DNA of 64,000 bases from Thermoanaerobaculia bacterium (GTDB lineage Bacteria > Acidobacteriota > Thermoanaerobaculia > Multivoradales > JAIOJS01), in the NCBI GenBank assembly GCA_036005845.1, contig DASYQD010000124.1, positions 25,024 through 89,023 on the forward strand, given 5' to 3'. The first letter of the stretch is position 1. Each line of letters opens with the position of its first letter. A program made the position numbers and the translations under genes. The notes beneath the pieces were generated by a model. It was not told where the DNA came from. It did not search any database and saw nothing but the letters and a program-made list of their open reading frames with translations. Shown here one piece after another: positions 14,735 through 48,131 of this stretch.

Positions 14735-14738
14735 GGCG

Positions 14739-16829: not shown

Positions 16830-16894
16830 GGGCCTCTCGCGCCAGCGCGTCCGACGTGCTTGTGACCCCCACGCACAGGCGCTAGACTGCCTCG

Positions 16895-17390
<496 letters not shown>

Positions 17391-19732: not shown

Positions 19733-19824
19733 GACGGCGATTACGCCGGCCCCGTCATGAAACCCGGCCGGTCGTAGGGGCGTAGTCTTCGCTGGAGCGG
19801 CGAGCTCGCCGCCGGGAGGGCGCC

Positions 19825-26794: not shown

Positions 26795-27079
26795 TCAGCG
26801 AGTCGCGAGCACCCGCTGCCAGCTCGGGTCGCGCTCGACGTACTCGGCGACGAACCAGCAGGAGGGCACCACTTTCAGCCCTTCCGACTCCGCCCACTCG
26901 AGCGCGCGCTTGACCACCCGCGCCGCGATGCCGCGCCCGCGCAGCGCCGGCGGGGTGTAGGTGCTGACGAAGTCGACCGTCCGCTCGTCGAGCCGGCGAT
27001 AGACGAGGTAGGAAGTCTGGCCATCGCGCTCGTGCGTGAAGCGCTGGCGGGCGGCGTCGTGGACGATCTCGGCTGCCAT
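26795..27079 (-). CDS. Small GNAT-like N-acetyltransferase (YjdJ-type, ~94 aa)
   Basis: Compact acetyl-CoA-binding core (RGRGIAARVVKRALEWAESEGLKVVPSCWFV) typical of the PF14542-like mini-GNATs. Confidence 0.65.
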   Translation of the reverse strand: MAAEIVHDAARQRFTHERDGQTSYLVYRRLDERTVDFVSTYTPPALRGRGIAARVVKRALEWAESEGLKVVPSCWFVAEYVERDPSWQRVLATR

Positions 27080-27115
27080 GCGGCACCTCCGAGAGGAGCT
27101 TAGCTCCCGCGCGCG

Positions 27116-27652
27116 TCAGCCGCTCGGCGCCGCGCCGCCGACCGGCCGCTCGAGCAGCAGGTAGACGCCCTTGTCCTCCCGGAGCGCAAAGCCGAGACGG
27201 GCGTAGAGCCGCAGCGCCGGGTTGAAGCGCTCGACGTGGATGCTCACCGGCTTGCCCGCCGCGTCGGCCTCCGCGAACACCGCCTGCAGCAGCGCGCCGC
27301 CGAGTCCCTTGCCGCGGTGCTCGGGCAGCAGGCTGATGTCGACGATGCGCACCTCGCGCGGCCAGCGGTCGACGTAGAGACGGCCGGCGGGCACGCCGGC
27401 GACTTCGACGACGTCGAAAGTGGCCGTCGTGTACTGCTCGCGGTACCACGCGTGCTGCGCCTCGAACTGCTGGCGCACGAAGGCCTCGCGCTGCTCGCGC
27501 GGCCACTCGACGCCGGCGAGCTCTTCCTCGCGCGAGCTGGCATACAGGCGCAGCAGGAAGGGCAGGTCGTCGTCGGTCACCGGCCGTAGGCTCAGCGGCG
27601 GCGGCACCATGCCGCCTCGAGGCTCCGCATGCTCGTCGGCCGGCGAGGTCAC
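27116..27652 (-). CDS. GNAT family N-acetyltransferase
   Basis: HRGKGLGGALL (Q/RxxGxG/A motif A) and the LYARLGF motif. Confidence 0.7.
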   Translation of the reverse strand: MTSPADEHAEPRGGMVPPPLSLRPVTDDDLPFLLRLYASSREEELAGVEWPREQREAFVRQQFEAQHAWYREQYTTATFDVVEVAGVPAGRLYVDRWPREVRIVDISLLPEHRGKGLGGALLQAVFAEADAAGKPVSIHVERFNPALRLYARLGFALREDKGVYLLLERPVGGAAPSG

Positions 27653-28670: not shown

Positions 28671-29183
28671 TCAAGTCCGCGGCGGGTACACGCCTTGGAG
28701 TGCGATGCAGAAGTAGAAGGTGAGGTAAGGCTGCAGGTTGTTGTGCGGCTGGTCGCCCCCGGCGGGCGGCAGCGCATTGTCCGACATCGACACCAACCCG
28801 GTCAACGTGCTCTGGTAGGCGTTGACGTAACGCGCCAACGAGTTGCCCGCCGGGTTCGGATTGTCGCCCAAGGAAGTGGCGGCGCGCAGGGTGTGCGAAT
28901 GGGACGGGATCTCCGACTCCAACAGCGAGACGGTCTCCGAGCCGCCGGTCTCGCCGAGGTCGTGAAGCGACAGGCCGGGGCCCTGTCCGGGGTGCATCGG
29001 CGCGCGGCCCTGCAGGTCGGGCAGCGCGAAGTTCGACTTGCCGTTGCCTCCATAGGTGGTGCCCAGGAGCGAGAACAGCGCCGTGTTCTGCGACAGCGGC
29101 AGGAGCTGGCCGTCGCACCACGCCCACCCCTTGGGCGCGAAGTTGAACGGGAAGATGCGGATCTCGGCTACGAATGGATCCAT
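28671..29183 (-). CDS. Phage tail collar domain protein (MdpB/microcystin-dependent-protein-like), paralog 1
   Basis: FVAEIRIFPFNFAPKGWAWCDGQLLPLSQNTALFSLLGTTYGGNGKSNFALPDLQGRAPMH..GGSETVSLLESEIPSHSH matches the PF07484-type tail-collar consensus, judged from memory. Confidence 0.8.
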   Translation of the reverse strand: MDPFVAEIRIFPFNFAPKGWAWCDGQLLPLSQNTALFSLLGTTYGGNGKSNFALPDLQGRAPMHPGQGPGLSLHDLGETGGSETVSLLESEIPSHSHTLRAATSLGDNPNPAGNSLARYVNAYQSTLTGLVSMSDNALPPAGGDQPHNNLQPYLTFYFCIALQGVYPPRT

Positions 29184-29199: not shown

Positions 29200-29709
29200 T
29201 CATGTAGGCGACGGGAAGATCCCGAACAACGAGATGATGAAGTTCACGCACAGGTAGGGCTGGAAGTTGGTGTGCGGTTGGCTGCCACCCGTCGACGTGA
29301 TCGACTGCGCCGCCATGTTGGCGGTGGGCACGTCTTGCAGGTAGAAATCGACGTTGGCCGTGGTGCTCTTCGCCACCACGTTGCCGCCCGGATCCGGCAA
29401 CGTTCCGGCGTTGGCGCTTCCCAGCAGCGGGTGAGAGTGCGCCGCGATCTGGTTGACGGTGAGCGTGATCTCCTCCGCGCCGCCGGTCTCCGCCAGGATG
29501 AAGCCGTTGCCCTGGTGGATGGGGATCCTGCCGCGCAGGTCGGGTAGCGCGAAAGTGGATTGGCCGTCACCACCGTAGGTGGTGCCGATGAGGTTGAAGA
29601 GGGTCTCGTATTCCGAGATCGGCAGCAGCTGGCCTTCGCAGAACATCCACCCGGCGGGCGCGAAGTTGCCGGCGAACATGCGGATCTCGCCAACGTAGGG
29701 TTGTGCCAT
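29200..29709 (-). CDS. Phage tail collar domain protein, paralog 2
   Basis: YVGEIRMFAGNFAPAGWMFCEGQLLPISEYETLFNLIGTTYGGDGQSTFALPDLRGRIPIH. Only the C-terminal 169 codons of the 1387-aa ORF in the track are real. Upstream, the frame stays open across the giant gene. Confidence 0.8.
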   Translation of the reverse strand: MAQPYVGEIRMFAGNFAPAGWMFCEGQLLPISEYETLFNLIGTTYGGDGQSTFALPDLRGRIPIHQGNGFILAETGGAEEITLTVNQIAAHSHPLLGSANAGTLPDPGGNVVAKSTTANVDFYLQDVPTANMAAQSITSTGGSQPHTNFQPYLCVNFIISLFGIFPSPT

Positions 29710-29720
29710 TGGCGTCTCCT

Positions 29721-30224
29721 TTAAGTCGCGCTGGGGAAGATGCCCTGCAGGGCGATGCAGTAGCTGAGGGTCAGGAACGGCTGCATGTTCAGGTGGGCCT
29801 GGCTCCCGCCGGTGTTGGTCACCGACCCGGGGTTCAGCGCCACCAGACCGGTAGCGGTCTGGTAGACGTTGTTGACCGTGCGGGCGAGCACGCTCGGATT
29901 GTTCGGGATCGGCACGTTGCCGTCGGTGGGGGACGCCTGCAGCACGTGGGTGTGCTGTGGGAGCTCGGCGATCGACAGGGTGTGCGCCTGCTCGCCGCCG
30001 CGCTCGCCCAGGGTGTGGCCGCTGCCGACGTGGATCGGCACCCGGCCGCGGAGGTCCGGCAGGCCGAAGTTGACGCGGCCGTCGCCTCCGAAGGTGGTGC
30101 CCAGCAGCGAGAACAGGGCCTGGTTCTGGTTGATGGGCAGCAGCTGCCCGTTGCACAACGCCCACCCCTTGGGTGCGAACACAAAGGACATCAGACGGAC
30201 TTCCGAGAGAAACGGCTCTGCCAT
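29721..30224 (-). CDS. Phage tail collar domain protein, paralog 3
   Basis: FLSEVRLMSFVFAPKGWALCNGQLLPINQNQALFSLLGTTFGGDGRVNFGLPDLRGRVPIH..GGEQAHTLSIAELPQHTH. Confidence 0.8.
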   Translation of the reverse strand: MAEPFLSEVRLMSFVFAPKGWALCNGQLLPINQNQALFSLLGTTFGGDGRVNFGLPDLRGRVPIHVGSGHTLGERGGEQAHTLSIAELPQHTHVLQASPTDGNVPIPNNPSVLARTVNNVYQTATGLVALNPGSVTNTGGSQAHLNMQPFLTLSYCIALQGIFPSAT

Positions 30225-30278: not shown

Positions 30279-33200
30279 CTACGGCGCCAGCGGGTTCTGG
30301 CACGTACCGTCGGCCACGGCCGTGTAGGTCGTCGCGTGGGTCGAACGCGCCGTCTGGCCCGCCGGCGTCGGGTTCTGGCCGACGATGAAGTTCTGGATGT
30401 TGGTGTCGTCGGCGGCGTTGCCCGTCAGGCGCTCGAGGTTGTACGTCGAGGTGTCGCGCTGGCGGACCAGGTAGTCCTGGTTGCCGCCCTCGCCGTCGGC
30501 GCTGTTTCCGTTGATGTCGACGCAAAGGTTGCTGTCGTTGCGCGCCTCGATCCGGATGGCGTGCGTCTCCGCCTGGTTGGGGCCGGCGCCGAAGGGGAAG
30601 TCGTCGTCGTCGCTGATCGGGCCGACGGTGTTGCTCCTCACCGTCACGTCGGCGTCGATGTTGCCGGCGACCGCGCTGGGGTCGCGGGTCTGGATGAAGA
30701 TGCCGTTGAGGGCGGTGTTGCGGATGATGTTGCTGCTGACGTTGGCCTTCACCGTCGGCGAGTCCTGCAGGTCGCCGGCGATGCCGAAGAAATTCTCGTT
30801 GCCCGAGCGCGGCGCGCCGACCAGGCCGATGGTGTTGCCCGTTATGTTGATGTCGAAGGTGCCGGTGCCGGCCGGGACGAACGACAGCGCGCTCGCCGAG
30901 CCGCCGTCGTTGGGAGCGATGCCGGTGTAGGCGAGCTGCACGTTGGTGATGTCGTGCCGCTGGATGGAGTTGCCGGTCGAGCTGATGCTGATGCCGAAGT
31001 TGGTGCCCACGCCGTTGCCCCAGGTGGCGCCGGAGGGATCCACGGGCGGCGCGCTGCTCACCATGTCGACGGCGTCGATGTCGCTGAACACCGTGGTGCC
31101 GGCGCCGCCGGTGATGAGGATGCCCGCCGCGGCGTTGTTCTTGACCTGGCCGCCGTTGACCACCAGCTTGACGTTGGCGCTGCCGGTGGCGGTGAGGTTG
31201 ATGCCGGCGTTGCCTTGGCCGACGACACCTTCGCCGGCGTGGTTGAGGTTGGTACCGGTGACGGTGAGCACGCTCTGCCCCGAGCTGCTGTTGGGGTCCC
31301 AGTCGAGGTTGGTGTTGCGCGACTCCTGCACCGTCGAGTTGGTGATGGTGTTGGCGCTGCCGATGAGGTCCTCGATGTGGATGCCGGAGTCCTGGATCGC
31401 GCCGCCCTCGGCCTGGGCGCCGTTGCTGTCCATCCACAGGTTGGTGAGGCTCAGCCCGCTGACGGCATCGATGGAGATGCCGCTGTCGGCGGCGTCGACG
31501 ATCGCCATGTTGCTCAGCGAAGGGTTGGTGGTGGTGAGGAGGAGCACGCCGTCGGCGGTGGTGTTCTGGATGGCACCGCCGGTGCAGGTGCCGACGCTCG
31601 AGCAGCTGCCGCCGTTGGCCTTGACCTTGAGGCCGCCCGAGCCGCCGGTGTTGTTGAGCAGGATGCCGTTGACGGCGCCGTTGGCCGCGACGCTGCGCAG
31701 CTCGATGTTGTTGGCGCTGATGGTGGTGTTGGTGACGGTGAGCGCCGTCCCGGTGGTGGTGGTCAGGGTGTTCACCAGCGCACCGGTCGCACCGGCGTTG
31801 CACGGGTTCTCGTCGCAGACCTCGACGGTGCCGCCGCCGGTGGCCGCGAAGGCGGCATTGGCGCCGGTCGAAGCCGTCAAGCCGCCGCGGAAGCTGATGG
31901 TGGCGCCGGTGTTGGTGGTGAGTGAGATCCCTTGTCCGGTGTCGCTGACCTGACCGGTGAACGCCACCGACGAGCCGCTGTCGGCATTGTTGATGGACAC
32001 CGAGCGGCCGGCGCTGCTGGTGATGGTGCCGCCGTAGGTCGCGGTGAGCACCGTCGTGCCGGCGGCCGAGTTGTCGACCGAGAACGCCGTGCCGCCGCCG
32101 CTCGACTTGGTGATCGAGCTTCCCGACGGCGCCGAGAAGGTGCCGCTCACCGTGGTGAGCGACACGCCGTTGGTGGAGGTGGTGCTCGTCAGCGAGTTGA
32201 GCTGCAGCGTGATGTCGGCGGCGCTGATCGCCGCAGCCGGGCCGGCGGTGGCCACCAGAGTGCCGGCGTTGGCGAGGACGTCGAAATCGAAGCCGCCGGT
32301 GCCGCCGGTCACGCTCAGCGCCGCCCCGCTGTCGGTGAAGATGTCGAGGTCGGTAGCGAAGTTCAACGCACCGGTCACGTTGCTCAGCACGAGGCCGTTG
32401 CCGGCGATGTGATCGCCGGAGGCGCCGATCTGCGTGTTGCCGCCAGGGACCGGCTGGATGGCGCCGCCGGGGGTGACGTCGAAGACCACGGGGTTGGCGC
32501 TGCCGGCCACCGTGATGCCGCCCACCGAGGTGCCCGTCACCACGTTGTCGTTGAAGGCGGTGATAGTGAGCGTCCCCGCCGTGTTCTGAACGTCGGCGGC
32601 GGCGCCGCTGCTGGTGAGCGTGTTGCTGGCCAGCGCCAGCGTCGCGGTGATGCTGGTGCTGCCCTGATTGACGTCGATCCCCTCGGAGGTGGCACCGCGG
32701 ATGGTGTCGTTGCTGATGGTGACGCCGATCGTGTTGGCGCCCGTGGCGGTGACGTCGATGGCGTTGGAGGTGGCGCCGGTGGCCTCGAGGTCGAGGCCGC
32801 GGATCTCGACGTTCTGCCGGTTGCCGGCGGTGGCCGGCACGTTGACGGTATTGGTGCTCGCCACCGTGCTGCGGATCCGCGCCTGGGTCGAGGCGGCCAC
32901 CAGCGAGGTGCCGAAGCCGGGGACGTCGAGGGCGATGCCCTGCCCCCACAGCTTCTGGCCGTTGCGCAGGGTGATGCTGCCGCTGTGCGGCGTGGTGGCC
33001 GTGTTGCCGGCGAAGACGTAGATGATGTCGCCATCGTTGGTCGTGGCGGCGTTGAAGGCCGCGACGCTGTCGAAGGCGTTGGTGGAGCGCCCGTCGCCGC
33101 CGGCGGCGTTGTTGGCATCGATAACGTCGCGGATGTACCAGACCCGCTGGCCGACGGCGACGTTGGCGGTCTGGTTGTTCGTCCCCGCGCCGTCGCTGAG

Positions 33201-36200
33201 CTGGAAGGTGAAGGTGTCGGCGCCGGTGAAACCGACCGCGGGCACGAAGAAGAAGTCGCCGGCGGCCGCGTTGCTGATGGTGAAGGTGCCGCCGTTGGCC
33301 GAGGAGCCCGAGCCGGTGACGACCGTCGTGGCGGCCGGACCGTCGGGGTCGGTCGGGCTGCACTTGGCCAGCAGGCTGGTGGAGTCGGTCCAGGCGGCGA
33401 CGCCCGGGGTCGTCGCGTTGACGTGGAGCTGGGTGTTGCCCGGCGTCGTGTAGTTGACGGTGTTGGCGCAGACCGGCAGGTCGTTGACCGGCGTCACGGT
33501 CACCTGCTTGTCGCCGTTGTTGCTGTTCAGCGCGCCGTCGTTGACGACGAAGCGGACGACGCGGGTGGTGGCGTTGGGGTCCTGGTCGAGGTTGTTGTAG
33601 GTCACCGAGCGCAGGCAGGTCTGGTAGGTGGCCTTGGGCTGGCTGCCGCTGATGCTGAGAGCGGTGGTACCGCCGCCGGTCACCGTGAGGCCGGCGCAGG
33701 AGGTGGCGGCGAGGCTCTCGAAGCTCACGTCGAGGACGTTGGTGATGGTCACCGTCGCCGACGTGAGGTTGGCGTTGTCGACGTCGGTCACGGTGAGGGC
33801 GTTGTCGACGACCACCGCGCCGCCGTCCTCGGTGAAGCTGGTGGCGCCGCCGGAGGTGGTCACCACCGGAGCGTCGTTGACCGGCGTCACCGTCACCGTC
33901 TTGTCGCCGTTGTTGCTGTTGCTGGTGCCGTCGTTGACGACGAAGCGGACGACGCGGTTGGGCGCGCCGGCCGGGTCCTGGTCGGTGTTGTTGTAGGTCA
34001 CCGACTGCAGGCAGGTCTGATAGGTGGCGAGCGGCTGGCTGCCGGTGATGGTCAACGTTGCCGTGCCGCTGCCGCCGACGGTGAACGCGCCGCAGGCGGT
34101 GGCCGCCAGGCTCTCGAAGCCGGCGTCCTGAACGTTGGTGATGGTCACCGTCGCCGAGGCGAGGTTGGCGTTGTCCACGTCGCTGACGGTGACGCCGGAG
34201 TCGACGACGACGGCGCCGGCGTCCTCGGTGAAGCTGGTGTTGCCGCCGGTGGTGGTGACGACCGGCGCGTCATTGACCGCGGTCACCGACACGTTCTTGG
34301 TCGCCGGCGCGCTGGAGAGGGCGCCGTCGTTGGCGACGAAGGAGATCACTCGCGTCGTCGTGCTGGGGTTGTTCGAGGTGTTGTTGTAGCGCGCCGACTG
34401 CAGGCAGGCCTGGTAGGTGGCCAGCGGCTGGCTGCCGCTGATGTTGAGCGTCGACGTGCCGCTGCCGCTCACCGTCAGCGCGCCGCAGGCGGTGGCGGTG
34501 AGCTGCTCGGAGGCGCCATCGAGCACGTTGGTGATGGTCACCGTGGCCGAGGCGAGGTTGGCGGAGTCGACGTCGGTGACGGTGACGCCGGAGTCGATCA
34601 CCACGGCGCCGGCGTCCTCGGTGAAGGCGGTGGTGCCGCCGGTGGTGGTGACCACCGGCGCGTCGTTGACCGCCGTCACGGTGACGTTCTTGGTGGCGGG
34701 CGCGCTGGAGAGAGCGCCGTCGTTGGCCACGAACGAGATGACCCGCGTCGTGGTGTTGGGGGTCTGCGAGGTGTTGTTGTAGGTCACCGACTGCAGGCAG
34801 CTCTGGTAGGCGGCCGGCGTCTGGCTGCCGGTGATGGTCAGGGTGGGAGTGCCGCTGCCGCCGACGGTGAACGCGCCGCAGGCGGTGGCCGCCAGCGCCT
34901 CGGAGCCGACGTTCAGCACGTTGGTGATGGTCACCGTGGCCGAGGCGAGGTTGCCGCTGTCGGGGTCGACGACGGTGACGCCCGAGTCGACGACCACCGC
35001 GCCGCCGTCCTCGGTGAAGGCGGTGTTGCCGGCAGTGGTGACGACGATCGGCGCGTCGTTGGACGGCGTGACGCTGACGTTCTTGGTGGCCGGCGCGCTA
35101 CTGGCGGCTCCGTCGCTGGCGACGAACGAGATCACCCGCGTCGTGGTGTTGGGGGTGTCCGAGGTGTCGTTGTAGGTCACCGACCGCAGGCAGGTCTGGT
35201 AGGTCGCAGGCGGCTGGCTGCCGCTGATGGCGAGGATCGAGGTGCCGGCACCGCCGACCGTCAGGCCCGCGCAGGAGGTGGCGTTGAGCTGCTCGAAGGC
35301 GCCGTCCTGCAGGTTGGTGATGGTCACCGTCGCCGAGGCGAGGTTGGCGGAGTCGACGTCGGTGACGGTGACGCCGTTGTCGACGACGACCGCGCCGGCG
35401 TCCTCGATGAAGGCGGTGGTGCCGCCGGTGGTGGTGACCACCGGCGCGCTGTTTACCGCCGTCACCGTCACCGTCTTGTTGGCCGTGTTGCTGGGCAGCG
35501 CGCCGTCGTTGGCGACAAAGGAGATGACGCGCGCCGTCGTGCCCGGGTCGAGGTCGGTGTTGTTGTACGTCACCGACTGCAGGCAGGCCTGGTAGGTGGC
35601 CGGCGGCTGGCTGCCGGTGATGGTGAGCGTCGGGGTGCCGCTGCCGCCGACCGTGAGCGCGCCGCAGGCGGTGGCGGCGAGCGCCTCGAAGCCGACGTCC
35701 TGCACGTTGGTGATGGTCACGGTGGCCGAAGCGAGGTTGGGGCTGTCGACGTCGGTCACGGTGACGCCGGAGTCGACGACCACCGCGCCGCCGCCCTCGG
35801 TGAAGGAGGTGCTGCCGCCGGTGGTGGTGACGACCGGGGCGTCGTTGACCGCCGCCACCGACACGCTCTTGTTGGCGGGAGCGCTGCTCGCGGCGCCGTC
35901 GTTGGCGAGGAAGGAGATCACCCGCGTCGTGGTGTTGGGATCCTGGTCGGTGTCGTTGTAGGTCACCGAGCGCAGGCAGGTCTGGTACGTCGCCAGCGTC
36001 TGGCTGCCGCTGATGGTGAGGGTGGCCGTGCCGCTGCCGCCCACCGTCAAGCCGCCGCAGGCGGTGGCGGCGAGCGCCTCGGAGCCGACGTCCTGCACGT
36101 TGGTGATGCTGACCGTCGCCGAGGCGAGGTTGGCGGAATCGACGTCGGTGACGGTGAGGCCGCTGTCGATCGTCACCGGCCCGCCGTCCTCGGTGAAGGC

Positions 36201-39020
36201 GGTAGTCCCGCCGGTGGTGGTGACCACCGGAGCGTCGTTGACCGGAGCCACCGTCACCGTCTTATTGGCGGTATTGCTGTTGTTGGTGCCGTCGTTGGCG
36301 ACGAACGAGATCACGCGCGCCGTGTTGTTGGGGTCCTGGTCGGTGTTGTTGTAGGTCACCGAGCGCAAGCAGGTCTGGTAGGTGGCCAGCGGCTGGCTGC
36401 CGCTGATGCTGAGGGTTGCGGTGCCGCTGCCACCGACGGTCAAGCCGGCGCAGGAGGTGGCGGCGAGCGCCTCGAACCCGACGTCCTGCACGTTGGTGAT
36501 GGTCACCGTCGCCGAGGCGAGATTGGCGGAGTCGGCGTCGGTCACCGTCAGGCCGCTGTCGATGGTCACCGCGCCGCCGTCCTCGGTGAAGGCGGTCGAG
36601 CCGCCGGTCGTCGTCACCACCGGCGCGTTGTTGACCGCGGCCACGCTCACCGTCTTGTTGGCGGGCGCGCTGTTGGCCGTGCCGTCGTTGGCGACGAACG
36701 AGATCACGCGGTTGGTGGTGTCGGGGTCCTGGTCGGTGTTGTCGTAGGTCACCGAGCGCAGGCAGGTCTGATAGGTGGTGAGCGGCTGGCTGCCGCTGAT
36801 GGTGAGCGTGGCCGTGCCGCTGCCGCCGACCGTCAGGGCGCCGCACGCCGTGGCGGCGAGCTGCTCGGAGCCGGCGTCGAGCACGTTGGTGATGGTCACC
36901 GTCGCCGAGGCGAGGTTGGCGTTGTCGACGTCGGTCACCGTCACGCCGGCGTCAACGACGATCGCGCCGCCGCCCTCGGTGAAGGCGGTGGTGCCGCCGG
37001 TGGTGGTCACCACCGGGGCGTCGTTGACCGGCGTCACCGTCACCGTCTTGTTGGCCGGCGCGCTGCTGTTGGTGCCGTCGTTGGCGACGAACGAGATGAC
37101 GCGCGCGGTGGCGTCGGGATCCTGGTCGGTGTTGTTGTAGGTCACCGACTGCAGGCAGGTCTGGTAGACGGCGAGCGGCTGCGTGCCGCTGATGGTGAGG
37201 GTGGGCGTGCCGCTGCCGCCCACCGCGAGCGCGCCGCAGGCGGTGGCGGCGAGCTGCTCAGAGCCGGCGTCGAGCACGTTGGTGATGCTCACCGTCGCCG
37301 AGACGAGGTTGGTGTCGTCGGGATCGGTCACCGTCACGCCGGCGTCGACGACGACGGCGCCGCCGTCCTCGGTGAAGGAGGTGGAGCCGGCCGTGGTGGT
37401 CACCACCGGGGCGTCCGGGCTGGCCGCCACGGTCACCGTCTTGTTCGCCGGCGCGGAGCTCGCGACGCCGTCGTTGACGAGGAAGGAGACCACGCGCGCC
37501 GTGGTGCTCGGGTTGTTCGAGGTGTCGTCGAAGGTCACCGACTGCAGGCAGGTCTGGTAAGTGGCGAGCGGCTGGCTGCCGGTGATCGACAGCGTGTTGA
37601 GGCCCGGCGTCACCGTCAGCCCGGCGCAAGCGGTTCCCGCGAGCACCTCGGAGGCGCCGTCCTGCGGGTTGGTGATCGTCACCGTCGCCGAGGCGAGGTT
37701 CGGCGAGTCGACGTCGGTCACCGTCACGCCGTTGTCGATCACCACCGGCCCGCCGTCCTCGGTGAAGGCGGTGCTGCCGGCGGTCGTGGTCACCACCGGC
37801 GCGTCGTTGTTCGGCGTCACGTTGACCGTCTTGTTGCCCGGTGCGCTGTTGACAATGCCGTCGTTGGCGACGAAGGCGACCGTGCGCGGCGTGGTGCCCG
37901 GCGTGTTCGAGGTGTCGTTGTAGGTGACCGAGCGGAAGCAGGTCTGGTAGGTGGCGGGCGGCTGGCTGCCGGTGATGCTCAGGCTGTTGAGGCCGGGCGT
38001 CACGGTGAGGCCGGCGCAGGCGGAGGCGGCGAGGGTCTCGAGCGCGCCGTCCTGTGGATTCGTGATCGTCACCGTGGCGGAGGCGAGGTTCGCGCTGTCG
38101 GCGTCGGTGACGGTGATGCCGGAGTCGACGACGACCGCCGGGCCGTCCTCGGTGAACGTCGTCGCGCCGGGCGTCGGCGTCACCACCGGCGGCGTGTTGA
38201 AGACCAGCGAGGCGTCGATGCGGAAGTAGACGCGGGCGCTGGGGACGTCGCTGCGCGCGTACAGCGACGCGATGTCGTCGCCGTCGTTCTGCGCCGTGGG
38301 GTCGAAGGCGACGCGGAAGCCGACGTTCCACTCCTGGAGCGTGTTGCCGTCGAGGTCGAAGACGACGGCGTAGGCGACGCCGCCCGCGGCGAGCACCAGC
38401 AGCACGAGGAGCAGCGCGCGCAGCGGCCGCCGGCGCAGCTTGAACGCCGCCATCCCGGCGAGCAGCAGGATGAGGGCGAGCAGGCCCCACTGCGACAACG
38501 TCGGAATGTCGGGAGTGCCGCCGAGGATGAAGAGGATCGGCGGCCCGGTGGGCGTGCCGTCGGTGGTGAAGAGCGTGTCGGTGCCGCCGTTGGCGTTCTG
38601 GGCGAAGACGCCGAGGCGGAGGCAGTTGGCCTGCGAGGCGCCGTGGCAGGGGAAAAGCGGCGGCGGCGATATCGCAACCATCGGCCAGAAGGTCTCGATG
38701 ACGTTGAGGCCGAGGTCGCCGTTGCCGATGCCGACCGGATGCGGGGTGGTGTCGGAGAAGATCGACGCGTTGGCGCAGTCGCGGCCCTGGATCTGCGTCA
38801 CCGTCGCCGCGTTGGGCGAGGTGGTGGTGTTCACCGTGGTGACGACCTTCTGGTCGTAGCCCAGGAAGCCCGACGGGCCGTCGTTGCAACCCGTCGCCGG
38901 GTTGTTGTCGAAGTCGATGAAGATCGTCAGGTCGGACTGCACCGCCGCCGCCGGAGCGGCGAGGCCGATCGTGATCAGCGTTGCGGCGAGCAGGGCGGGA
39001 ACGAAGTGGATGCGTCGCAT
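30279..39020 (-). CDS. Giant (2913 aa) secreted surface protein. It carries an N-terminal signal peptide, a ~170-aa domain ending in an IPTL-CTERM-like segment, about 12 tandem ~130-aa repeats, and a C-terminal parallel beta-helix region.
   Basis: The single ORF has a signal peptide (MRRIHFVPALLAATLITIGLAAPAAA), the IPTLSQWGLLALILLLAGMAAFKLRRRP motif at aa 172-199, and repeats of the type NDAPVVTTTGGTTAFTEDGGAVVVDSGVTVTDVDSANLASATVTITNV.DAGSE.LAATACG.LTVGGSGT.TL.ISGSQPLATYQTCL.SVTYNNTDQDP...RVISFVANDG...SAPANKTVTVTPV. The C-terminal ~900 aa are rich in short G/N/T/S beta-helix rungs. Confidence 0.8.
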   Translation of the reverse strand: MRRIHFVPALLAATLITIGLAAPAAAVQSDLTIFIDFDNNPATGCNDGPSGFLGYDQKVVTTVNTTTSPNAATVTQIQGRDCANASIFSDTTPHPVGIGNGDLGLNVIETFWPMVAISPPPLFPCHGASQANCLRLGVFAQNANGGTDTLFTTDGTPTGPPILFILGGTPDIPTLSQWGLLALILLLAGMAAFKLRRRPLRALLLVLLVLAAGGVAYAVVFDLDGNTLQEWNVGFRVAFDPTAQNDGDDIASLYARSDVPSARVYFRIDASLVFNTPPVVTPTPGATTFTEDGPAVVVDSGITVTDADSANLASATVTITNPQDGALETLAASACAGLTVTPGLNSLSITGSQPPATYQTCFRSVTYNDTSNTPGTTPRTVAFVANDGIVNSAPGNKTVNVTPNNDAPVVTTTAGSTAFTEDGGPVVIDNGVTVTDVDSPNLASATVTITNPQDGASEVLAGTACAGLTVTPGLNTLSITGSQPLATYQTCLQSVTFDDTSNNPSTTARVVSFLVNDGVASSAPANKTVTVAASPDAPVVTTTAGSTSFTEDGGAVVVDAGVTVTDPDDTNLVSATVSITNVLDAGSEQLAATACGALAVGGSGTPTLTISGTQPLAVYQTCLQSVTYNNTDQDPDATARVISFVANDGTNSSAPANKTVTVTPVNDAPVVTTTGGTTAFTEGGGAIVVDAGVTVTDVDNANLASATVTITNVLDAGSEQLAATACGALTVGGSGTATLTISGSQPLTTYQTCLRSVTYDNTDQDPDTTNRVISFVANDGTANSAPANKTVSVAAVNNAPVVTTTGGSTAFTEDGGAVTIDSGLTVTDADSANLASATVTITNVQDVGFEALAATSCAGLTVGGSGTATLSISGSQPLATYQTCLRSVTYNNTDQDPNNTARVISFVANDGTNNSNTANKTVTVAPVNDAPVVTTTGGTTAFTEDGGPVTIDSGLTVTDVDSANLASATVSITNVQDVGSEALAATACGGLTVGGSGTATLTISGSQTLATYQTCLRSVTYNDTDQDPNTTTRVISFLANDGAASSAPANKSVSVAAVNDAPVVTTTGGSTSFTEGGGAVVVDSGVTVTDVDSPNLASATVTITNVQDVGFEALAATACGALTVGGSGTPTLTITGSQPPATYQACLQSVTYNNTDLDPGTTARVISFVANDGALPSNTANKTVTVTAVNSAPVVTTTGGTTAFIEDAGAVVVDNGVTVTDVDSANLASATVTITNLQDGAFEQLNATSCAGLTVGGAGTSILAISGSQPPATYQTCLRSVTYNDTSDTPNTTTRVISFVASDGAASSAPATKNVSVTPSNDAPIVVTTAGNTAFTEDGGAVVVDSGVTVVDPDSGNLASATVTITNVLNVGSEALAATACGAFTVGGSGTPTLTITGSQTPAAYQSCLQSVTYNNTSQTPNTTTRVISFVANDGALSSAPATKNVTVTAVNDAPVVTTTGGTTAFTEDAGAVVIDSGVTVTDVDSANLASATVTITNVLDGASEQLTATACGALTVSGSGTSTLNISGSQPLATYQACLQSARYNNTSNNPSTTTRVISFVANDGALSSAPATKNVSVTAVNDAPVVTTTGGNTSFTEDAGAVVVDSGVTVSDVDNANLASATVTITNVQDAGFESLAATACGAFTVGGSGTATLTITGSQPLATYQTCLQSVTYNNTDQDPAGAPNRVVRFVVNDGTSNSNNGDKTVTVTPVNDAPVVTTSGGATSFTEDGGAVVVDNALTVTDVDNANLTSATVTITNVLDVSFESLAATSCAGLTVTGGGTTALSISGSQPKATYQTCLRSVTYNNLDQDPNATTRVVRFVVNDGALNSNNGDKQVTVTPVNDLPVCANTVNYTTPGNTQLHVNATTPGVAAWTDSTSLLAKCSPTDPDGPAATTVVTGSGSSANGGTFTISNAAAGDFFFVPAVGFTGADTFTFQLSDGAGTNNQTANVAVGQRVWYIRDVIDANNAAGGDGRSTNAFDSVAAFNAATTNDGDIIYVFAGNTATTPHSGSITLRNGQKLWGQGIALDVPGFGTSLVAASTQARIRSTVASTNTVNVPATAGNRQNVEIRGLDLEATGATSNAIDVTATGANTIGVTISNDTIRGATSEGIDVNQGSTSITATLALASNTLTSSGAAADVQNTAGTLTITAFNDNVVTGTSVGGITVAGSANPVVFDVTPGGAIQPVPGGNTQIGASGDHIAGNGLVLSNVTGALNFATDLDIFTDSGAALSVTGGTGGFDFDVLANAGTLVATAGPAAAISAADITLQLNSLTSTTSTNGVSLTTVSGTFSAPSGSSITKSSGGGTAFSVDNSAAGTTVLTATYGGTITSSAGRSVSINNADSGSSVAFTGQVSDTGQGISLTTNTGATISFRGGLTASTGANAAFAATGGGTVEVCDENPCNAGATGALVNTLTTTTGTALTVTNTTISANNIELRSVAANGAVNGILLNNTGGSGGLKVKANGGSCSSVGTCTGGAIQNTTADGVLLLTTTNPSLSNMAIVDAADSGISIDAVSGLSLTNLWMDSNGAQAEGGAIQDSGIHIEDLIGSANTITNSTVQESRNTNLDWDPNSSSGQSVLTVTGTNLNHAGEGVVGQGNAGINLTATGSANVKLVVNGGQVKNNAAAGILITGGAGTTVFSDIDAVDMVSSAPPVDPSGATWGNGVGTNFGISISSTGNSIQRHDITNVQLAYTGIAPNDGGSASALSFVPAGTGTFDINITGNTIGLVGAPRSGNENFFGIAGDLQDSPTVKANVSSNIIRNTALNGIFIQTRDPSAVAGNIDADVTVRSNTVGPISDDDDFPFGAGPNQAETHAIRIEARNDSNLCVDINGNSADGEGGNQDYLVRQRDTSTYNLERLTGNAADDTNIQNFIVGQNPTPAGQTARSTHATTYTAVADGTCQNPLAP
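33500..38210 (-). repeat. About 12 tandem coding repeats of ~390 bp (~130 aa) within the giant gene
   Basis: Periodic recurrence of the NDAPVV...FTEDGG...VTDVDS...TYQTCL...VANDG block. The ~280-420 bp periodicity is also visible in the spurious plus-strand ORFs at 33628, 34135, 34417, 34831 ... 37951. Boundaries are approximate. Confidence 0.7.
38424..38507 (-). other. Internal IPTL-CTERM-like sorting motif (IPTL + TM helix + RRR), followed by a second signal-peptide-like segment
   Basis: aa 172-199 of the giant ORF read IPTLSQWGLLALILLLAGMAAFKLRRRP. This is followed by LRALLLVLLVLAAGGVAYA|VVFD, with a possible ATG at ~38453. Confidence 0.5.
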
Positions 39021-39303
39021 CGATCACCCTCCAGGTCTGCGGCCGAGACCTGTATCTATCCGAGGTTGGTGGCGCCCATCTCGCCGCCCGGAGGGAGCGC
39101 TACTCGGACCTCGACCGCCCGACGTGGCTGCCCGAAGGGATGCGAGCTCTGTTGTGATCCGGGGACATACCCTAGCAGATCGGGGCGCGCATGGGTAACC
39201 ACCCCCTTGGTGGCGCCCCGCAGGCGGCCGTCCGACGGGATTTCAAGCGGGTCCAGTCAGGGAGTTGCCATCCGCGGCCGCGATCTCGACTACCATCTAG
39301 CCC

Positions 39304-40464
39304 GTGAGGTGGCGCGGTCGGGCCGCAATCGCCGGCTGGCTCATGGTGGCGTCGTTGGCCGCGGGCTGCGCGGCGCGGCGACAGCCGGTGGTCGTCGACG
39401 CCGGGATCACGGCGATCCCGCCGGAAGCGAGCGTGCAGGCGGCGCCGCCGCCATCCGACTCGGCGCCGGCCTCCGCCGCTACCGACGAATCGGCGACGTC
39501 GGTGACGCCCGTCGCGGTTCCCACCCCCGCGCCGCCGCCGGCCGAGGCGTCTCTCCATGACCTCTGCCGCCAAGAGAGCGACAGCCCGAGCTTCGTCGAC
39601 GAGAGCCGGCGCGTTCTCGCCGAGACCTTCTGCGGCGCCACGCTCTGGTTCGACGGTCTCTTCGGCGGCACGCCCGACGTGCGCAATGCGCGCGCCGTAT
39701 CGGGCCGCGTCGAGCTGTCGGGGCTGCGCACCGACTTCGAGGGCTTCGACGGCAAGGCGCGCCTGCGCCTCAACTACGAGCTGCCGAACCTGCAGCGCCG
39801 CGTGCGCTTCTTCCTCGGCCGCGACGAGCGCAGCTTCACCTCCGATCGCCAGGAGGGTTTCGCCATCCGCTCGGCGGTGTTCGGCCTCGACGACCGCGAC
39901 GAGTGGCTGGCGGGCCTCGGCTACCGGCCGCCCGGCCGCTTCCTGCAGCGCGTCGACTTCGGCGTCGGCGCGCGGCTCAAGAGCTCGCCCGAGGTGTTCG
40001 CGCAGACGCGCTATCGCCGCAACGTCTTTCTCGGCCGCAACGACGTCTGGCGCTTCCGCGAGACGGTGTTCTGGGAGAACCGCGACGGCTTCGGCTCGAC
40101 GACCAGCCTCGACTGGGACCGCGTGCTGCGCCGCGACCTGCTGCTGCGCTGGGGCAACGTCGGCACCATCTCCGAGGCCTCGGACGGATTCGAGTGGCGC
40201 TCGGCGATGGTGCTCTACAAGAACCTGCGCGGTCTGCGCGCCATCGCGGAGGAGCTCTTCGCGCGCGGCGCCACCGACGCCGAGGTGAGCTTCCGCGAGA
40301 TCGGGGCGCGGACGATCTATCGCCAGCCGCTGCGCGCACCTTATCTATTCGGTGACCTCATCGTCGGCTACTCGTGGCCGCGCGAGCGGCGCTACCAGGC
40401 ACGCGAGGGCTCGGCGATGATCGGTCTCGGCGTCGAGCTGCTCTTTGGCCACGAGCCGTATTGA
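39304..40464 (+). CDS. Predicted lipoprotein of unknown function
   Basis: Lipobox LAAGC near the N-terminus (MRWRGRAAIAGWLMVASLAAGCAA). A Pro/Ala-rich linker is followed by a beta-rich domain with alternating aromatic and charged residues. Divergent from the giant gene. Confidence 0.5.
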   Translation: MRWRGRAAIAGWLMVASLAAGCAARRQPVVVDAGITAIPPEASVQAAPPPSDSAPASAATDESATSVTPVAVPTPAPPPAEASLHDLCRQESDSPSFVDESRRVLAETFCGATLWFDGLFGGTPDVRNARAVSGRVELSGLRTDFEGFDGKARLRLNYELPNLQRRVRFFLGRDERSFTSDRQEGFAIRSAVFGLDDRDEWLAGLGYRPPGRFLQRVDFGVGARLKSSPEVFAQTRYRRNVFLGRNDVWRFRETVFWENRDGFGSTTSLDWDRVLRRDLLLRWGNVGTISEASDGFEWRSAMVLYKNLRGLRAIAEELFARGATDAEVSFREIGARTIYRQPLRAPYLFGDLIVGYSWPRERRYQAREGSAMIGLGVELLFGHEPY

Positions 40465-43956: not shown

Positions 43957-46900
43957 TCAGCCGCCGAGGGCTTGGAACAAAGCCCAATTCGCAGGCGAGC
44001 GGAGAGCAGGGTCGGGGCTGGCGAGGAGCTGTAGCTGCGCCGAGCGCAGCGCGCTGGCGGCATCTTCGCCGGAGCTCAACCGAGTGTGGAGGGCGGTGAG
44101 GAGCGGCACGCTACGCTGGTCGCCTACGGGCCACAGCGCCGCTACGACCGTCGGCACGTTCGCGGCCAGGAATGAACGGGCCAGGCTGACCCTCCCGGCG
44201 GTGCCGGACAGAGGATCGCCGGTTCCGCCGCAGACCGCCAATACGACGGTCCGCGTGCGCGCGAATGACAGCGAGGGGATCTCATCCGCGTAGAGCGCCC
44301 CGCTGCCGTCGCCGGGCTGCAGCGGTGCCAAGGCGAGCGCGGAGCGCGATGGGAGGGCGTCGTCGACCAGCGCATGGGTGGCGACGTGGACGACCGAGTG
44401 ATCGCCCATCGCGGCCACGAGGGTGCTGCGCGTCGCTCGCTCCCCGGTGACCACGACGGCGCCCCGGTACAGCGCCGCGACGGCGCGCACCTCGTCTGCG
44501 GCTCCGGAGAGGCGCTGAAGGCCGGGGAAGAGATGGTCGTCGAGCGCCGGATCGCCGAGCAGGAACGGTGGTGTGCGCTGCCCTTGCGATAGTGCGATTT
44601 CGCGTGCACGAGCGTGAACGAAGTAACTGGCGCTCGGCGCCAGCTCGAGAACGTGCTCCTGCATGAGGAACTTGTGGCGCGCGCCGCCGAGCGCCGAGAA
44701 GGGCAACGACTCGAGGCTCTTGTCGGCAACGATCACCAGCCTACGGGCGGTGTCGGCGAGCTCGGCAGGAGCCACCAGCGTACGGTACAGCTCCGCCGCC
44801 GCCTCGTCGCTCGCCGGAGTCCAGGTGCCCGCGGTGAGATCGGCGTCGATGATCGCGCTCCATGCGGCGACCTGCGCCGGCCGCACGGGCAGCGTGATCG
44901 TCCGCACGCCGCGGTGATCGGCCCGCCAGAGCACCGCGCGCTCACCGAGCAAGGCGTACGACAACACGGCCGTCTCCGTGTCCAGAGCAGCCGGGAGCTC
45001 GGCGAGGCCGATGTTCTGGATGCTCGCGGTCGAGCCTAGGGAGTGGGCGCGCGCTCGCTCGATCCAGTCGAATGCTTCCGCGGTGCGGCCGCGATCGAGG
45101 GCCGCGGCAGCCATCTCGTCGTAAAGCCTGCCGGCGCCGTCCAGGCGGTCGAGCCAGAGCAAGTCGTGGGGAGCGGCCGGCGTCGACTCCAGTAGCGAGA
45201 TGCCCTCCGCGAGGTCTCGCGCCGCGGCGTCGAAGTCGCCGTCGGCGCGGTGGGCGTTCGCACGCTGCAGGAACAGGCCTGGAAGGCGAACGCTCTGCTG
45301 AAGCTGCTCGAAACCGGCAAGGGCGCGGGACGAGGCGGCGATGGCGATGGCGGGCGAGCCTGCCGTCGCAGCTCTGACCGCTGCCAGTTCCGGAAGGAGT
45401 CGCGTACGCATTGCGGAGTTGTCTACCGACGAGAGCGCCACGGCTGCACGGCCAACCTCGACGGCTGCGGAACCGTGGTCGTCGAGCTGCAACGCTATTT
45501 GCGCACGGCGTAGATGGAGGGTTACCAGTTGATACGGCCGAAGAGTCGCACTCTGCGTCGAGGCTTCGTCGAGCAAGGCGCTGGCGAGGTTGACGTGGCC
45601 GAGCAGAAGGCACGAGGTTGCCGTCTGCAGGAGAATGTTCTGCGCTCGTTGCGGGTCGTCGCCCAGACTGGGCACGCCGGCAATCCCCGCAATCCGGTGC
45701 TGCCAAGCGTTGCGCTGATCGCCGGCGAGCGTGTACGCCTCGCCGAGGAGGTAGTCGAGCCAGATCACGGGCTCGTCCTCGCCGACGAGCCGATAGGCGG
45801 CCATCGCCGACTGGTAGTGGCCGATGGCTTCGCTCGGCCGGCCCCGTAGCGTCGCCGCGAGGCCACGCGCCTGGGCAAGCCTGCCGCGACTGACCGGATC
45901 AGTTTCCTGCGCTCCGGCGCTGCGGTCGATCTCGGCGATGAGCCCGTCGCTGGGGCCCGCGCTGACCAGGCGAATGGCGAGCAGCTCGACTTGCGCTCGC
46001 CGAAGGCCGATGCCGTCGTGGGGGAACGAGGAAACGGCAAGTCGGAGGTGATCCTCGGCGCCGCGCCAAGACCCTTCCTCTAGAAGCAGCTCCCCTTGGG
46101 CCAGCGAGCGTTGTGCCTCGGCAAGCAAGCGTAGCGACACCCGATCGGAGGTTGTCGCCTCGTCGATCTGATCCTCGAGACGGGAGTCGCCTGTCTGTTG
46201 GCGATAGAGATTGGCGATCCTCGAGGCCGTGGCCAACAGTTGGGTGGCGGCTGACTCATCGCCCTGGACTATCGCGTCGCCCCAGTCGCGCAGCAGGTCG
46301 TGCTCGACTAGTCGTCGTGCCGCGAAGCGGTGGGCAGCGACCAGTGCGGGCAACTCCCGGTCGCCACGCTCGGCCGCGCGGCGCAATGTAGGCGTGCTGG
46401 CGCCGCTGGGCGTGCGACCAAATCTCGCCAGGTGCGTCCTCGCCTCGCCTCGCCAATGCGCGTCGGTCTCCAGCTCTCCGTAGTCGGTCCACGCGCGAAT
46501 TGCTTCGGCCCGAAGTCCGAGCAGCTCGAGCGCGATGGCCTGGTTGAACTTTGCCTCCAGTAGGGCGGGCGCGGAACGAAGGGCAGCCGACGCGAGCTCC
46601 AGTGCGGCGGCGGCATCCGCAGAACCGCCGTCCTGCATGCCGCGAGCGAGATAAACGGCGGCGAGGTCGCTCCGCAGGCCGGGGTCGGAGGGGCGCGCGG
46701 CGAGGGCGCGACCGAGAGTGGCAAGCGCAGAATCGAGATTGCCGACGAGATAGTGCGCGTCGGCGAGCGCGCCAAGCGTCTCCGGTTGACTGGAAGTGAC
46801 CGCGGCTTGGCGCACGGCTTCGGCGGCTGCGTAATAGCGCCAGGCGTCAGCGCCGCCGTTGCTTGCAGAAATGCCCCTCTTCACCTCCGTTACCGGCGCC

Positions 46901-47250
46901 CAGTGGAACCCTCCCGTGAGCCGCGGCAACAGCGGCCGCGCTTCCGCCGTCGCGGCGATCAGCGGCGCGCGCGGGTTGGTTCGCCAGGGCGCCTCCTCGC
47001 CGCGGGTCGCCATCCACAGCGCCGCCGGCACCGCCACCATGACCACTGCCGCCGCGGCCACCCACCGTCCGGGCGCACCCTCCCGCTGCGGCGGCGGCAG
47101 GGCGCACGCCTGGAAGCGCATGGCGTCCGCCATGGCGTTGCCGCAGCGGTCGCAGCCCGCGAGGTGTTCCTCGAGGCGCTCGCGCTGTTCGGGGAAGAGC
47201 TGGCCGTCGAGGTAGGCGGCCAGGCGCTCGGGCTCAGGACAGCGGGGCAA
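43957..47250 (-). CDS. Anti-sigma factor (zinc-finger) / transmembrane / TPR-like / CHAT-domain (caspase-like protease) fusion protein
   Basis: The N-terminus has the zinc-binding anti-sigma motif (EEHLAGCDRCGNAM). A single TM helix follows (WVAAAAVVMVAVPAALWMA). A ~700-aa helical-repeat region follows. The C-terminal CHAT-like domain carries candidate catalytic His (VVHVATHALVDD) and Cys (TVVLAVCGGTGD). The start lies 17 nt downstream of the ECF sigma gene stop. Confidence 0.7.
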   Translation of the reverse strand: MPRCPEPERLAAYLDGQLFPEQRERLEEHLAGCDRCGNAMADAMRFQACALPPPQREGAPGRWVAAAAVVMVAVPAALWMATRGEEAPWRTNPRAPLIAATAEARPLLPRLTGGFHWAPVTEVKRGISASNGGADAWRYYAAAEAVRQAAVTSSQPETLGALADAHYLVGNLDSALATLGRALAARPSDPGLRSDLAAVYLARGMQDGGSADAAAALELASAALRSAPALLEAKFNQAIALELLGLRAEAIRAWTDYGELETDAHWRGEARTHLARFGRTPSGASTPTLRRAAERGDRELPALVAAHRFAARRLVEHDLLRDWGDAIVQGDESAATQLLATASRIANLYRQQTGDSRLEDQIDEATTSDRVSLRLLAEAQRSLAQGELLLEEGSWRGAEDHLRLAVSSFPHDGIGLRRAQVELLAIRLVSAGPSDGLIAEIDRSAGAQETDPVSRGRLAQARGLAATLRGRPSEAIGHYQSAMAAYRLVGEDEPVIWLDYLLGEAYTLAGDQRNAWQHRIAGIAGVPSLGDDPQRAQNILLQTATSCLLLGHVNLASALLDEASTQSATLRPYQLVTLHLRRAQIALQLDDHGSAAVEVGRAAVALSSVDNSAMRTRLLPELAAVRAATAGSPAIAIAASSRALAGFEQLQQSVRLPGLFLQRANAHRADGDFDAAARDLAEGISLLESTPAAPHDLLWLDRLDGAGRLYDEMAAAALDRGRTAEAFDWIERARAHSLGSTASIQNIGLAELPAALDTETAVLSYALLGERAVLWRADHRGVRTITLPVRPAQVAAWSAIIDADLTAGTWTPASDEAAAELYRTLVAPAELADTARRLVIVADKSLESLPFSALGGARHKFLMQEHVLELAPSASYFVHARAREIALSQGQRTPPFLLGDPALDDHLFPGLQRLSGAADEVRAVAALYRGAVVVTGERATRSTLVAAMGDHSVVHVATHALVDDALPSRSALALAPLQPGDGSGALYADEIPSLSFARTRTVVLAVCGGTGDPLSGTAGRVSLARSFLAANVPTVVAALWPVGDQRSVPLLTALHTRLSSGEDAASALRSAQLQLLASPDPALRSPANWALFQALGG

Positions 47251-47267
47251 CGGCCCCCTCGCCCGGC

Positions 47268-48131
47268 CTAGCTTTGGTGGCGATCGTCGTCGGCATCGTC
47301 CTGCTTAGACGGACGCGCCGCCTCGGATTCCCCCTCGTTGGCGAGACCGAAGTCCAAAGTCGGTCCCCGCTGGAGCAGCCGGGAGACGTCGTGGCGCTCG
47401 ACGCCCGCCTCGCGCAGGTCGCGCTTGATGCTCTTGAGGATGCTGGTGAGGCGCTTGTAAAGCGCCTTTTGCGGCACTCTCATGCCGCGCGCCGCCTCGG
47501 CCACTGACAGGCCGTCGCTGAAGTGGAGGCGGAGGAGCAGGCGGTCCTGGGCGCGCAGCCGGCGCAGGCTCGCCGCCACGGCGCGGGTGACCTCGTCCTC
47601 TTCGGCGCGCTGAACCAGGGTGTCTTCGTGGTTCGGCGAGGGCTCCGGCTCGGCCACCTCGTCGGCGCCGAGCGGCTGGGTGCGCGGGCGGCCGGGGCGC
47701 GGCGGCAGCTGGGCGTAGAGGCGCGTCAGCTCTCCGGGGCCGACGTTGAAACGAACGCCGAGCACCTGGCAGGCCTCGGCGAAGGTGAGCCCTTCGCGGT
47801 AGAGCAGCTCCTCGAGCGCCTCCGCCACCGGCCCCAGGCGGAGCGCGGCGGCCGAGGCGCGCCACTTGCCCCAGAGCTGATTGCAGTAGTCGTGGAAGAG
47901 ACGCTGCACGACGACGGTGAGGTACGTGCGCAGCGTGCTGTGCTGCCGCCAGCTGCGCAGGGTCTCGTAGTCGTCCTCCACCAGGCGCAGACGGACGAAC
48001 GACTCGAGCTCTTCGGTCTGCTCGGCGTTGAGCCGGTAGCGGCGCGCGAGGAAGCCCACCAGGTCGCGCAGCAGCGACAGGTTGGCGAGCAACAGCTCGC
48101 GCGGGCTCAAGTCCGACGACGCGGCACCCAT
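47268..48131 (-). CDS. ECF-type RNA polymerase sigma factor (sigma-70 family)
   Basis: Region 2 (LVEDDYETLRSWRQHSTLRTYLTVVVQRLFHDY) and region 4 (LRAQDRLLLRLHFSDGLSVAEAARGMRVPQKALYKRLTSILKSIKRDL). Start at internal ATG 48131. Confidence 0.75.
   Translation of the reverse strand: MGAASSDLSPRELLLANLSLLRDLVGFLARRYRLNAEQTEELESFVRLRLVEDDYETLRSWRQHSTLRTYLTVVVQRLFHDYCNQLWGKWRASAAALRLGPVAEALEELLYREGLTFAEACQVLGVRFNVGPGELTRLYAQLPPRPGRPRTQPLGADEVAEPEPSPNHEDTLVQRAEEDEVTRAVAASLRRLRAQDRLLLRLHFSDGLSVAEAARGMRVPQKALYKRLTSILKSIKRDLREAGVERHDVSRLLQRGPTLDFGLANEGESEAARPSKQDDADDDRHQS

Follow-up and report, generated by a model that had tools for sequence, protein, structure and literature searches.

Sorting signals of the exosortase, sortase and archaeosortase systems are defined by their position at the C-terminus of a protein, and both annotation pipelines and search strategies assume this position. 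What, then, does such a signal mean close to the beginning of a giant protein? The question is raised by a 64,000-nucleotide stretch of DNA from a Thermoanaerobaculia bacterium (GenBank assembly GCA_036005845.1, contig DASYQD010000124.1, positions 25,024 to 89,023), hereafter the window, in which a gene on the minus strand (30279..39020) encodes a secreted giant repeat protein of 2913 residues. Within its open reading frame (ORF), residues 172-199 read IPTLSQWGLLALILLLAGMAAFKLRRRP (38424..38507) and look like an IPTL-CTERM sorting signal, and residues 200-218 read LRALLLVLLVLAAGGVAYA (38367..38423) and form a second hydrophobic stretch, after which the sequence continues with VVFDLDGNT. An earlier sequence-only reading of this region, whose coordinates (38367..38507) are exact in that they span precisely the two helices, took it for the place where two genes had been joined in frame. 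The analysis reported here leads to a different answer. The signal is real and is conserved in hundreds of related proteins, so that it is probably a built-in N-terminal processing and anchoring module; in particular, the IPTL segment probably represents the core of this conserved module and no junction of two genes.

As for the signal itself, all three parts of the IPTL-CTERM design are present on the minus strand at 38424..38507, namely the motif IPTLSQWG, then helix 1 (LLALILLLAGMAAF), and then the basic cluster KLRRR. Against the model TIGR04174 (IPTL_CTERM), which has a curated cut-off of 20.5 bits, the protein scores 24.7 bits as a whole, 28.4 bits when only its first 280 residues are considered and 34.7 bits for a 33-residue segment alone, with a match that spans profile positions 1-27 of 27. 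Similarly, PF18203, with a curated cut-off of 20.8 bits, gives a full-length match of 26.4, 30.1 and 36.4 bits, respectively. The E-values of these matches range from 2e-5 to 5e-9, and the resemblance is thus no chance event. The description of a near-textbook signal was therefore upheld, as scores above both curated cut-offs over the full models were obtained in a comparison that had been named beforehand as one that could refute it. The giant protein departs from IPTL-CTERM proteins, whose cognate enzyme is exosortase H (XrtH), in the position of the signal: the full model is matched by motif, helix and Arg cluster together, but of the 2913 residues only 199 have passed when the signal is complete, and it lies mid-protein in all homologues as well. 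In Methylomirabilis, an S-layer (surface) protein has been shown experimentally to carry IPTL-CTERM at its C-terminus (PMC8671808). In the six-frame translation of the window, the IPTL-like motif of the giant ORF is the sole one.

Could the signal nonetheless mark the end of a separate, small protein? According to the two-gene reading, a stop codon has been lost by a sequencing or assembly error, a recent fusion has taken place, a stop is read through, or the downstream part is translated separately from an internal ATG at 38453. The ATG is indeed there, as codon 190 (Met190, 38451..38453) inside helix 1, and from Met190 onwards the sequence resembles a classical signal peptide, which speaks in favour of two genes. 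Against it stands the comparison with related loci. Homologues retrieved with the first 280 residues are 32-76% identical and display the same order of elements whenever they are long enough, and a scan of species-representative genomes yielded seven loci in metagenome-assembled genomes of Thermoanaerobaculia and other Acidobacteriota in which, where the contig permits, the match lies at the beginning of one long ORF (2110-2999 residues from stop to stop). Two of these seven independent loci, L001 and L002 (ORFs of 2999 and 2656 residues, respectively, stop to stop), contain the same junction as the window protein, as do the other five, and share synteny with the window on either side, at 74-84% nucleotide identity, and thus represent orthologous loci. 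The check for two genes at orthologous loci therefore found one uninterrupted ORF in each of them. Moreover, across the 70 codons around the hairpin formed by the two helices, each pairwise comparison with related loci reveals 10-16 synonymous and 15-36 non-synonymous codon differences, with no stop or frameshift at the junction.

An internal start at 38453 was rejected too, as no Shine-Dalgarno sequence precedes Met190 and this residue is not conserved, being replaced by Ala, Leu or Val in homologues, while the ATG at 39020 that opens the 2913-residue ORF has the sequence GGAGGG about 7 nucleotides upstream. The G+C content at third codon positions (GC3) is 0.97 for the gene and uniform on both sides of the junction, with values of 0.96-1.00 for each segment including the junction itself and 0.85 for the 26-codon signal peptide as the exception. 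In addition, the layout is common to 694 clusters of proteins. Taken together, the orthologous single ORFs, the codon comparison, the variability of Met190 and the GC3 profile lead to the rejection of a lost stop, an assembly error or an internal start, so that an artefact or a pair of genes appears very improbable. An ancient fusion is a possible evolutionary origin of the module family. The two fallback ideas of the sequence-only reading, namely an internal signal-anchor and a sorting tag that acts from an N-terminal position, are favoured by the evidence and were broadly right.

The extent of the family was evaluated with a profile built from residues 1-280, which was compared with 1.84 billion representative proteins (clusters at 50% identity) and returned the 694 clusters at E<=1e-3, 416 at E<=1e-10 and 69 at E<=1e-30. 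Among the 150 matches listed, nearly all cover the whole profile at protein residues 1 to about 270, and many of the proteins are 1700-3000 residues long, the shorter ones being mostly fragments at contig ends. Members also come from Candidatus Contendobacter, other Gammaproteobacteria and other Pseudomonadota, where the deposited entries are called, for example, 'tandem-95 repeat protein' or 'Ig-like domain repeat protein'; some homologues are called 'IPTL-CTERM sorting domain-containing protein' by NCBI. No homologue was found in the plasmid collection searched. A subgroup of complete short proteins (about 411-417 residues) has the same N-terminal module (L008 10001-13985, L010 8652-12588) and is followed by a conserved three-gene set without family assignment (about 220, 371 and 270 residues).

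The order of elements in the module is a signal peptide, a beta domain of about 145 residues, the IPTL signal, a second helix with AxA, a beta segment of about 55 residues and a variable passenger. In the window protein, all on the minus strand, the N-terminal signal peptide occupies residues 1-26 (38943..39020; MRRIHFVPALLAATLITIGLAAPAAA/VQS, the slash marking the cleavage point as read from the sequence), and, of 112 family members, 84 have a hydrophobic N-terminus, while many of the rest are truncated. The all-beta N-domain that follows (residues 27-171, 38508..38942) is conserved, with D36, D38, G44, C45, C82 and E109 invariant in three alignments (A1, A2 and A4). After the two helices comes a conserved segment with three beta strands (residues 219-275, 38196..38366) of the pattern LDGxxxEW ... 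DxxxDDGDDI ... YFRIDASLVF, in which G225, W231, R267 and D269 do not vary.

The conservation of the IPTL motif can be described for the 112 out of 155 family proteins that pass a regular expression in which Pro was fixed and the other positions were restricted. Position by position, I/V is found in 106 of them, P in 112 (by construction), T/A in 104, L in 97 and S/G in 93, then comes a position that may be any residue, followed by W in 63 and G in 77. Most of the proteins that fail the expression still display xPxL variants together with the hairpin and the LDG motif. The spacing is nearly constant, with 50-56 residues from the motif to a downstream 'DG' in 105 of 112 members, and the stretch between the motif and this 'DG', which includes both helices and the loop, contains a mean of 3.5 Arg/Lys and 0.1 Asp/Glu. 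In A1, A2 and A4, P173 never varies, and together with A218, G225 and W231 it belongs to the few invariant columns of the module.

The second hydrophobic helix with an AxA-type end had also been noticed from the sequence, and it is indeed found directly after the IPTL signal (residues 200-218, 38367..38423), with AYA at 216-218. Its features are those expected of a putative internal signal peptide for signal peptidase I: a positive n-region (KLRRRP), an h-region of 10-15 residues (LRALLLVLLVLAAGG) and small residues at -3 and -1 (VAYA/V). The positive n-region of this second signal peptide would be the RRR tail of the IPTL signal. Family conservation points in the same direction. The consensus before LDGxxxDW is G-V-A-W-A/A-I-V, an A[WYF]A pattern is found in 51 of 112 members as compared with 4 of 112 in a control on helix 1, and, of the 71 members that have an aromatic-centred small-x-small site, 60 have it 4-5 residues before DG. 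A218 is invariant in alignment A4 and nearly so in A2.

What lies beyond the module is a long passenger that ends without a sorting signal of its own. Its stalk (33472..38156, minus strand) consists of 11.9 tandem copies of a 393-nucleotide (131-residue) repeat of cadherin-like, tandem-95 or Big_9 type, as defined by repeat analysis and by Pfam and NCBIfam matches, and the region after the repeat array (30279..33471, minus strand) ends with ...DGTCQNPLAP and has neither a C-terminal transmembrane segment nor a sorting signal. The 42 giant members listed behave alike: none has a C-terminal hydrophobic segment with a 17-residue mean hydropathy above 1.53, which means that they have no C-terminal transmembrane or sorting signal, and the N-terminal module is therefore their only membrane-related element. 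Low C-terminal hydrophobicity and a '...C-P-x-P' ending are common to most of them. The tails have a single Cys and are then Pro-rich (...GTCQNPLAP here, within 30279-30400; ...GACPQP and ...GTCPTP in relatives), and in most of these members a conserved N-x-x-x-F-x-x-G-x-N stretch precedes the Cys tail.

How might such a module work? We consider it on balance probable that the hairpin undergoes two cleavages, one at IPTL by an exosortase and one behind AxA by signal peptidase, a model in which the topology, both cleavages and the role of XrtH are deduced from sequence features. The N-terminal signal peptide would begin Sec export and bring the N-domain to the periplasmic side, where the IPTL helix would halt the transfer and leave its Arg cluster in the cytoplasm. 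The same Arg cluster would then serve as the positive n-region of the second helix, with its h-region of about 15 residues and its AxA c-region, and this helix would restart export, so that the two helices would form a hairpin and the giant passenger would be exported too. The IPTL-specific exosortase XrtH would cut at IPTL as it would at a true C-terminus and process or anchor the N-domain, and signal peptidase I would cut after AYA218 to give the passenger a new N-terminus at V219. As a net effect, a sorting system of the C-terminal type would act near the N-terminus of a protein whose own C-terminus lacks a sorting signal.

Several observations weigh against this two-cut model. The main weakness is that no exosortase gene was found in the window (about 25-30 kb on each side of the gene) or in about 220 kb of 14 related loci, where the search covered the neighbouring genes in the window and all multi-helix ORFs of the window and of L001-L011, which were scanned against NCBIfam and Pfam, as well as the Pfam lists of L008-L014. 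True C-terminal IPTL-CTERM proteins were likewise not found in the window or in loci L001-L011. Moreover, the motif has decayed in some subfamilies, for instance to APVPAASQ or TPVPLVDG, which would be unexpected if recognition by an exosortase were essential everywhere. The AxA cleavage site, in turn, is a putative one, read from the sequence and from family conservation. Finally, NF033207, an NCBIfam model named 'midcut-by-XrtH protein' with 175 profile positions and a cut-off of 45 bits, gives the window protein 37.1 bits, which is under the cut-off, with residues 169-216 on positions 34-82, that is, 49 of the 175.

Some of these observations can be accommodated by a plain hairpin, in which both helices would anchor the protein in the membrane permanently, the IPTL-like motif would be an evolutionary relic or a helix cap and no exosortase would take part. 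The lack of an exosortase in any neighbourhood examined and the degenerate motif of some subfamilies fit this arrangement, as does the fact that only 25 of the 42 members reach E<=0.01 on IPTL_CTERM. On the other hand, IPTL[SG]xWG is retained among proteins that elsewhere are only 25-40% identical, P173 is one of the very few columns that never vary in the whole module, and the match covers all three parts of a curated sorting-signal model. A permanent hairpin without an exosortase thus appears rather unlikely. The only membrane protease-like ORF that the exosortase search brought up encodes a CPBP-family protein (19786-20793, plus strand, 336 residues, multi-helix), which is no exosortase. 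It is 10 kb from the giant gene and shows weak similarity to CPBP intramembrane proteases, including the MrtJ model; the MrtJ class processes Cys-containing C-terminal sorting signals.

A different alternative arises from NF033207 itself. This model demonstrates that a mid-protein IPTL signal followed by a second helix is already modelled by NCBI curators and tied by name to exosortase H, and it matches 37 of the 42 family members as compared with 25 of 42 for IPTL_CTERM; a fragmentary member (P0013) gives the best score, 54.1 bits, and exceeds the cut-off. These matches, which link the family to the exosortase-H concept, count in favour of the two-cut model too, as does the IPTL-CTERM surface protein of Methylomirabilis. 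The likeness consists in an IPTL-type signal inside the protein, then a second hydrophobic helix and more protein. The differences are that NF033207 has about 34 profile positions before the signal, whereas the giant protein has a signal peptide and a folded domain of 145 residues, and that a profile of 175 positions faces a protein of 2913 residues, with which the overlap is confined to the hairpin region. Indeed, across the family the matches reach at most profile positions 17-108, that is, the end of the N-domain, both helices and up to about 25 residues of the segment after them. No publication on XrtH, 'midcut' or IPTLxxWG in this sense was found, and the name of the model is taken at face value.

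Both the name and the coverage of NF033207 imply a single mid-protein cut by an exosortase, after which the second helix would remain uncut and anchor the giant passenger on the inner membrane; with the AxA this helix has about 19 residues, enough to span a membrane. Yet the small-x-small A-W-A with its conserved aromatic residue, at a fixed distance from the first conserved residues of the passenger, is the signature of a cleaved signal peptide, a permanent anchor would be expected to have an h-region longer than about 15 residues, and in a diderm an adhesin of 2700 residues that stays on the inner membrane would be unable to get to the surface of the cell. A single cut is thus unlikely, and two cuts remain the preferred account.

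Other known systems help to place the two-cut model. LPXTG with sortase, PEP-CTERM with exosortase, PGF-CTERM with archaeosortase and MYXO-CTERM with myxosortase share the tripartite signal design, and they share the proposed outcome, in which the helix is removed and the upstream domain is attached to the cell surface. There, the signal comes after the complete mature protein, whereas in the giant protein only the 145-residue domain precedes it, and the bulk is downstream, behind a second export signal. Adhesins of the LapA or ice-binding type are exported C-terminus first via a type I system and plug an outer-membrane channel; in them, a small N-terminal module holds a giant repeat adhesin, and proteolysis nearby is a possible release switch. 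The likeness would be that here, too, it is the N-terminal module and not the C-terminus by which the repeat adhesin is retained on the cell. The giant protein differs in its Sec-type signals, and no RTX or type-I-secretion family is among its Pfam and NCBIfam matches.

A further question is whether the two beta parts on either side of the hairpin belong together. AlphaFold2 was run on residues 1-300 with 42 aligned sequences and returned a model with a mean predicted local distance difference test (pLDDT) score of 85.4 and a predicted template modelling (pTM) score of 0.79. The model contains the signal-peptide helix at 7-19, ten strands within residues 27-166 (pLDDT about 96), helices at 177-194 and 199-220, and three strands at 236-270 (pLDDT about 95). 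A pTM of this height would be hard to attain unless both beta pieces and the hairpin were confidently placed relative to each other. In parallel, mean-field direct-coupling analysis with 106 effective sequences gave five strongest couplings between the N-domain and the post-hairpin segment that all join predicted strands (138-253, 162-238, 33-266, 77-236 and 108-250).

These results raise the tentative and rather doubtful possibility that the N-domain (residues 27-171) and residues 219-275 are two pieces of one beta-sandwich interrupted by the hairpin, which would stay docked after both cuts, so that the passenger would be tethered non-covalently by its N-terminus to an exosortase-anchored domain. 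If true, such a split domain would allow a C-terminal sorting machine to anchor a protein by its N-terminus. Counting against it, the overall enrichment of couplings between the two parts is marginal at this number of effective sequences, the post-hairpin segment is still predicted confidently when modelled alone (pLDDT about 95), and neither an unsplit homologue nor a relative in the PDB was found. Indeed, the N-domain and the post-hairpin segment have no match in Pfam or NCBIfam, Foldseek found no structure in the PDB, and a permuted profile, made of the post-hairpin segment and then the N-domain, matched no PDB sequence. In a set of 5.8 billion proteins this profile matched only the same split family, and a circular permutation or unsplit ancestor was rejected.

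The gene neighbourhood is also conserved. Directly downstream of the giant gene, on the minus strand, are three tandem genes for phage-tail-collar-domain proteins of about 170 residues (29721-30224, 29200-29709 and 28671-29183). PF07484 matches the first and the third, and the middle one, visibly paralogous, was found by translation only, hidden in a spurious ORF of 1387 residues. The same trio follows family members in Gammaproteobacteria (L012 18048-19596, L013 9080-10633, L014 17361-18970), and thus the giant protein and the three collar proteins look like a conserved cassette across phyla, in which the trio could build a trimeric tip or serve as a binding partner. Genes for GNAT acetyltransferases, one or two per locus, lie a few genes downstream of the giant gene (26798-27652 on the minus strand of the window); they recur in L012 (22784-23287), L013 (10646-11182) and L014 (22651-23136), there often with DUF6916 genes.

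Elsewhere in the window, 43960-47304 (minus strand) encodes a protein of 1115 residues with an N-terminal zf-HC2 anti-sigma-type zinc finger, TPR repeats and a C-terminal CHAT protease domain. Two overlapping long ORFs of 724 residues (10-13 predicted helices) and 1030 residues at 12617-16913 (minus strand), with no NCBIfam match and a faint match to the glycosyltransferase family PMT_2, are probably one large uncharacterised membrane protein. Opposite the giant gene, the plus strand contains antisense ORFs (31932-39560), one of them of 2542 residues, and many ORFs of 120-130 residues between 32000 and 38000, all of which match the real frame in their high GC3; they are apparently not genes but a consequence of the very high G+C content and of the 393-nucleotide repeat.

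Collectively, these data describe a protein family that occurs in Acidobacteriota and Pseudomonadota and comprises at least 694 clusters (50% identity). Its members, which reach lengths of about 3000 residues, have a conserved IPTL-type signal some 170 residues after the N-terminus, fused to a second export signal. A mid-protein XrtH site is already part of one NCBIfam model name, and the concept itself is thus not new; the whole module, its use on giant adhesins, the conserved putative signal-peptidase site and the conserved gene neighbourhood appear to be undescribed so far. Indeed, the N-terminal module is unannotated save for the misleading 'IPTL-CTERM sorting domain-containing protein' or for generic repeat names. 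The module is also a clean substrate on which the biochemistry of exosortase H, so far unproven, could be tested. If the two-cut model is true, two exported products would arise from one translation product, one Arg cluster would double as the tail of a sorting signal and the n-region of a signal peptide, and a C-terminal sorting enzyme would serve the N-terminal end of giant adhesins.

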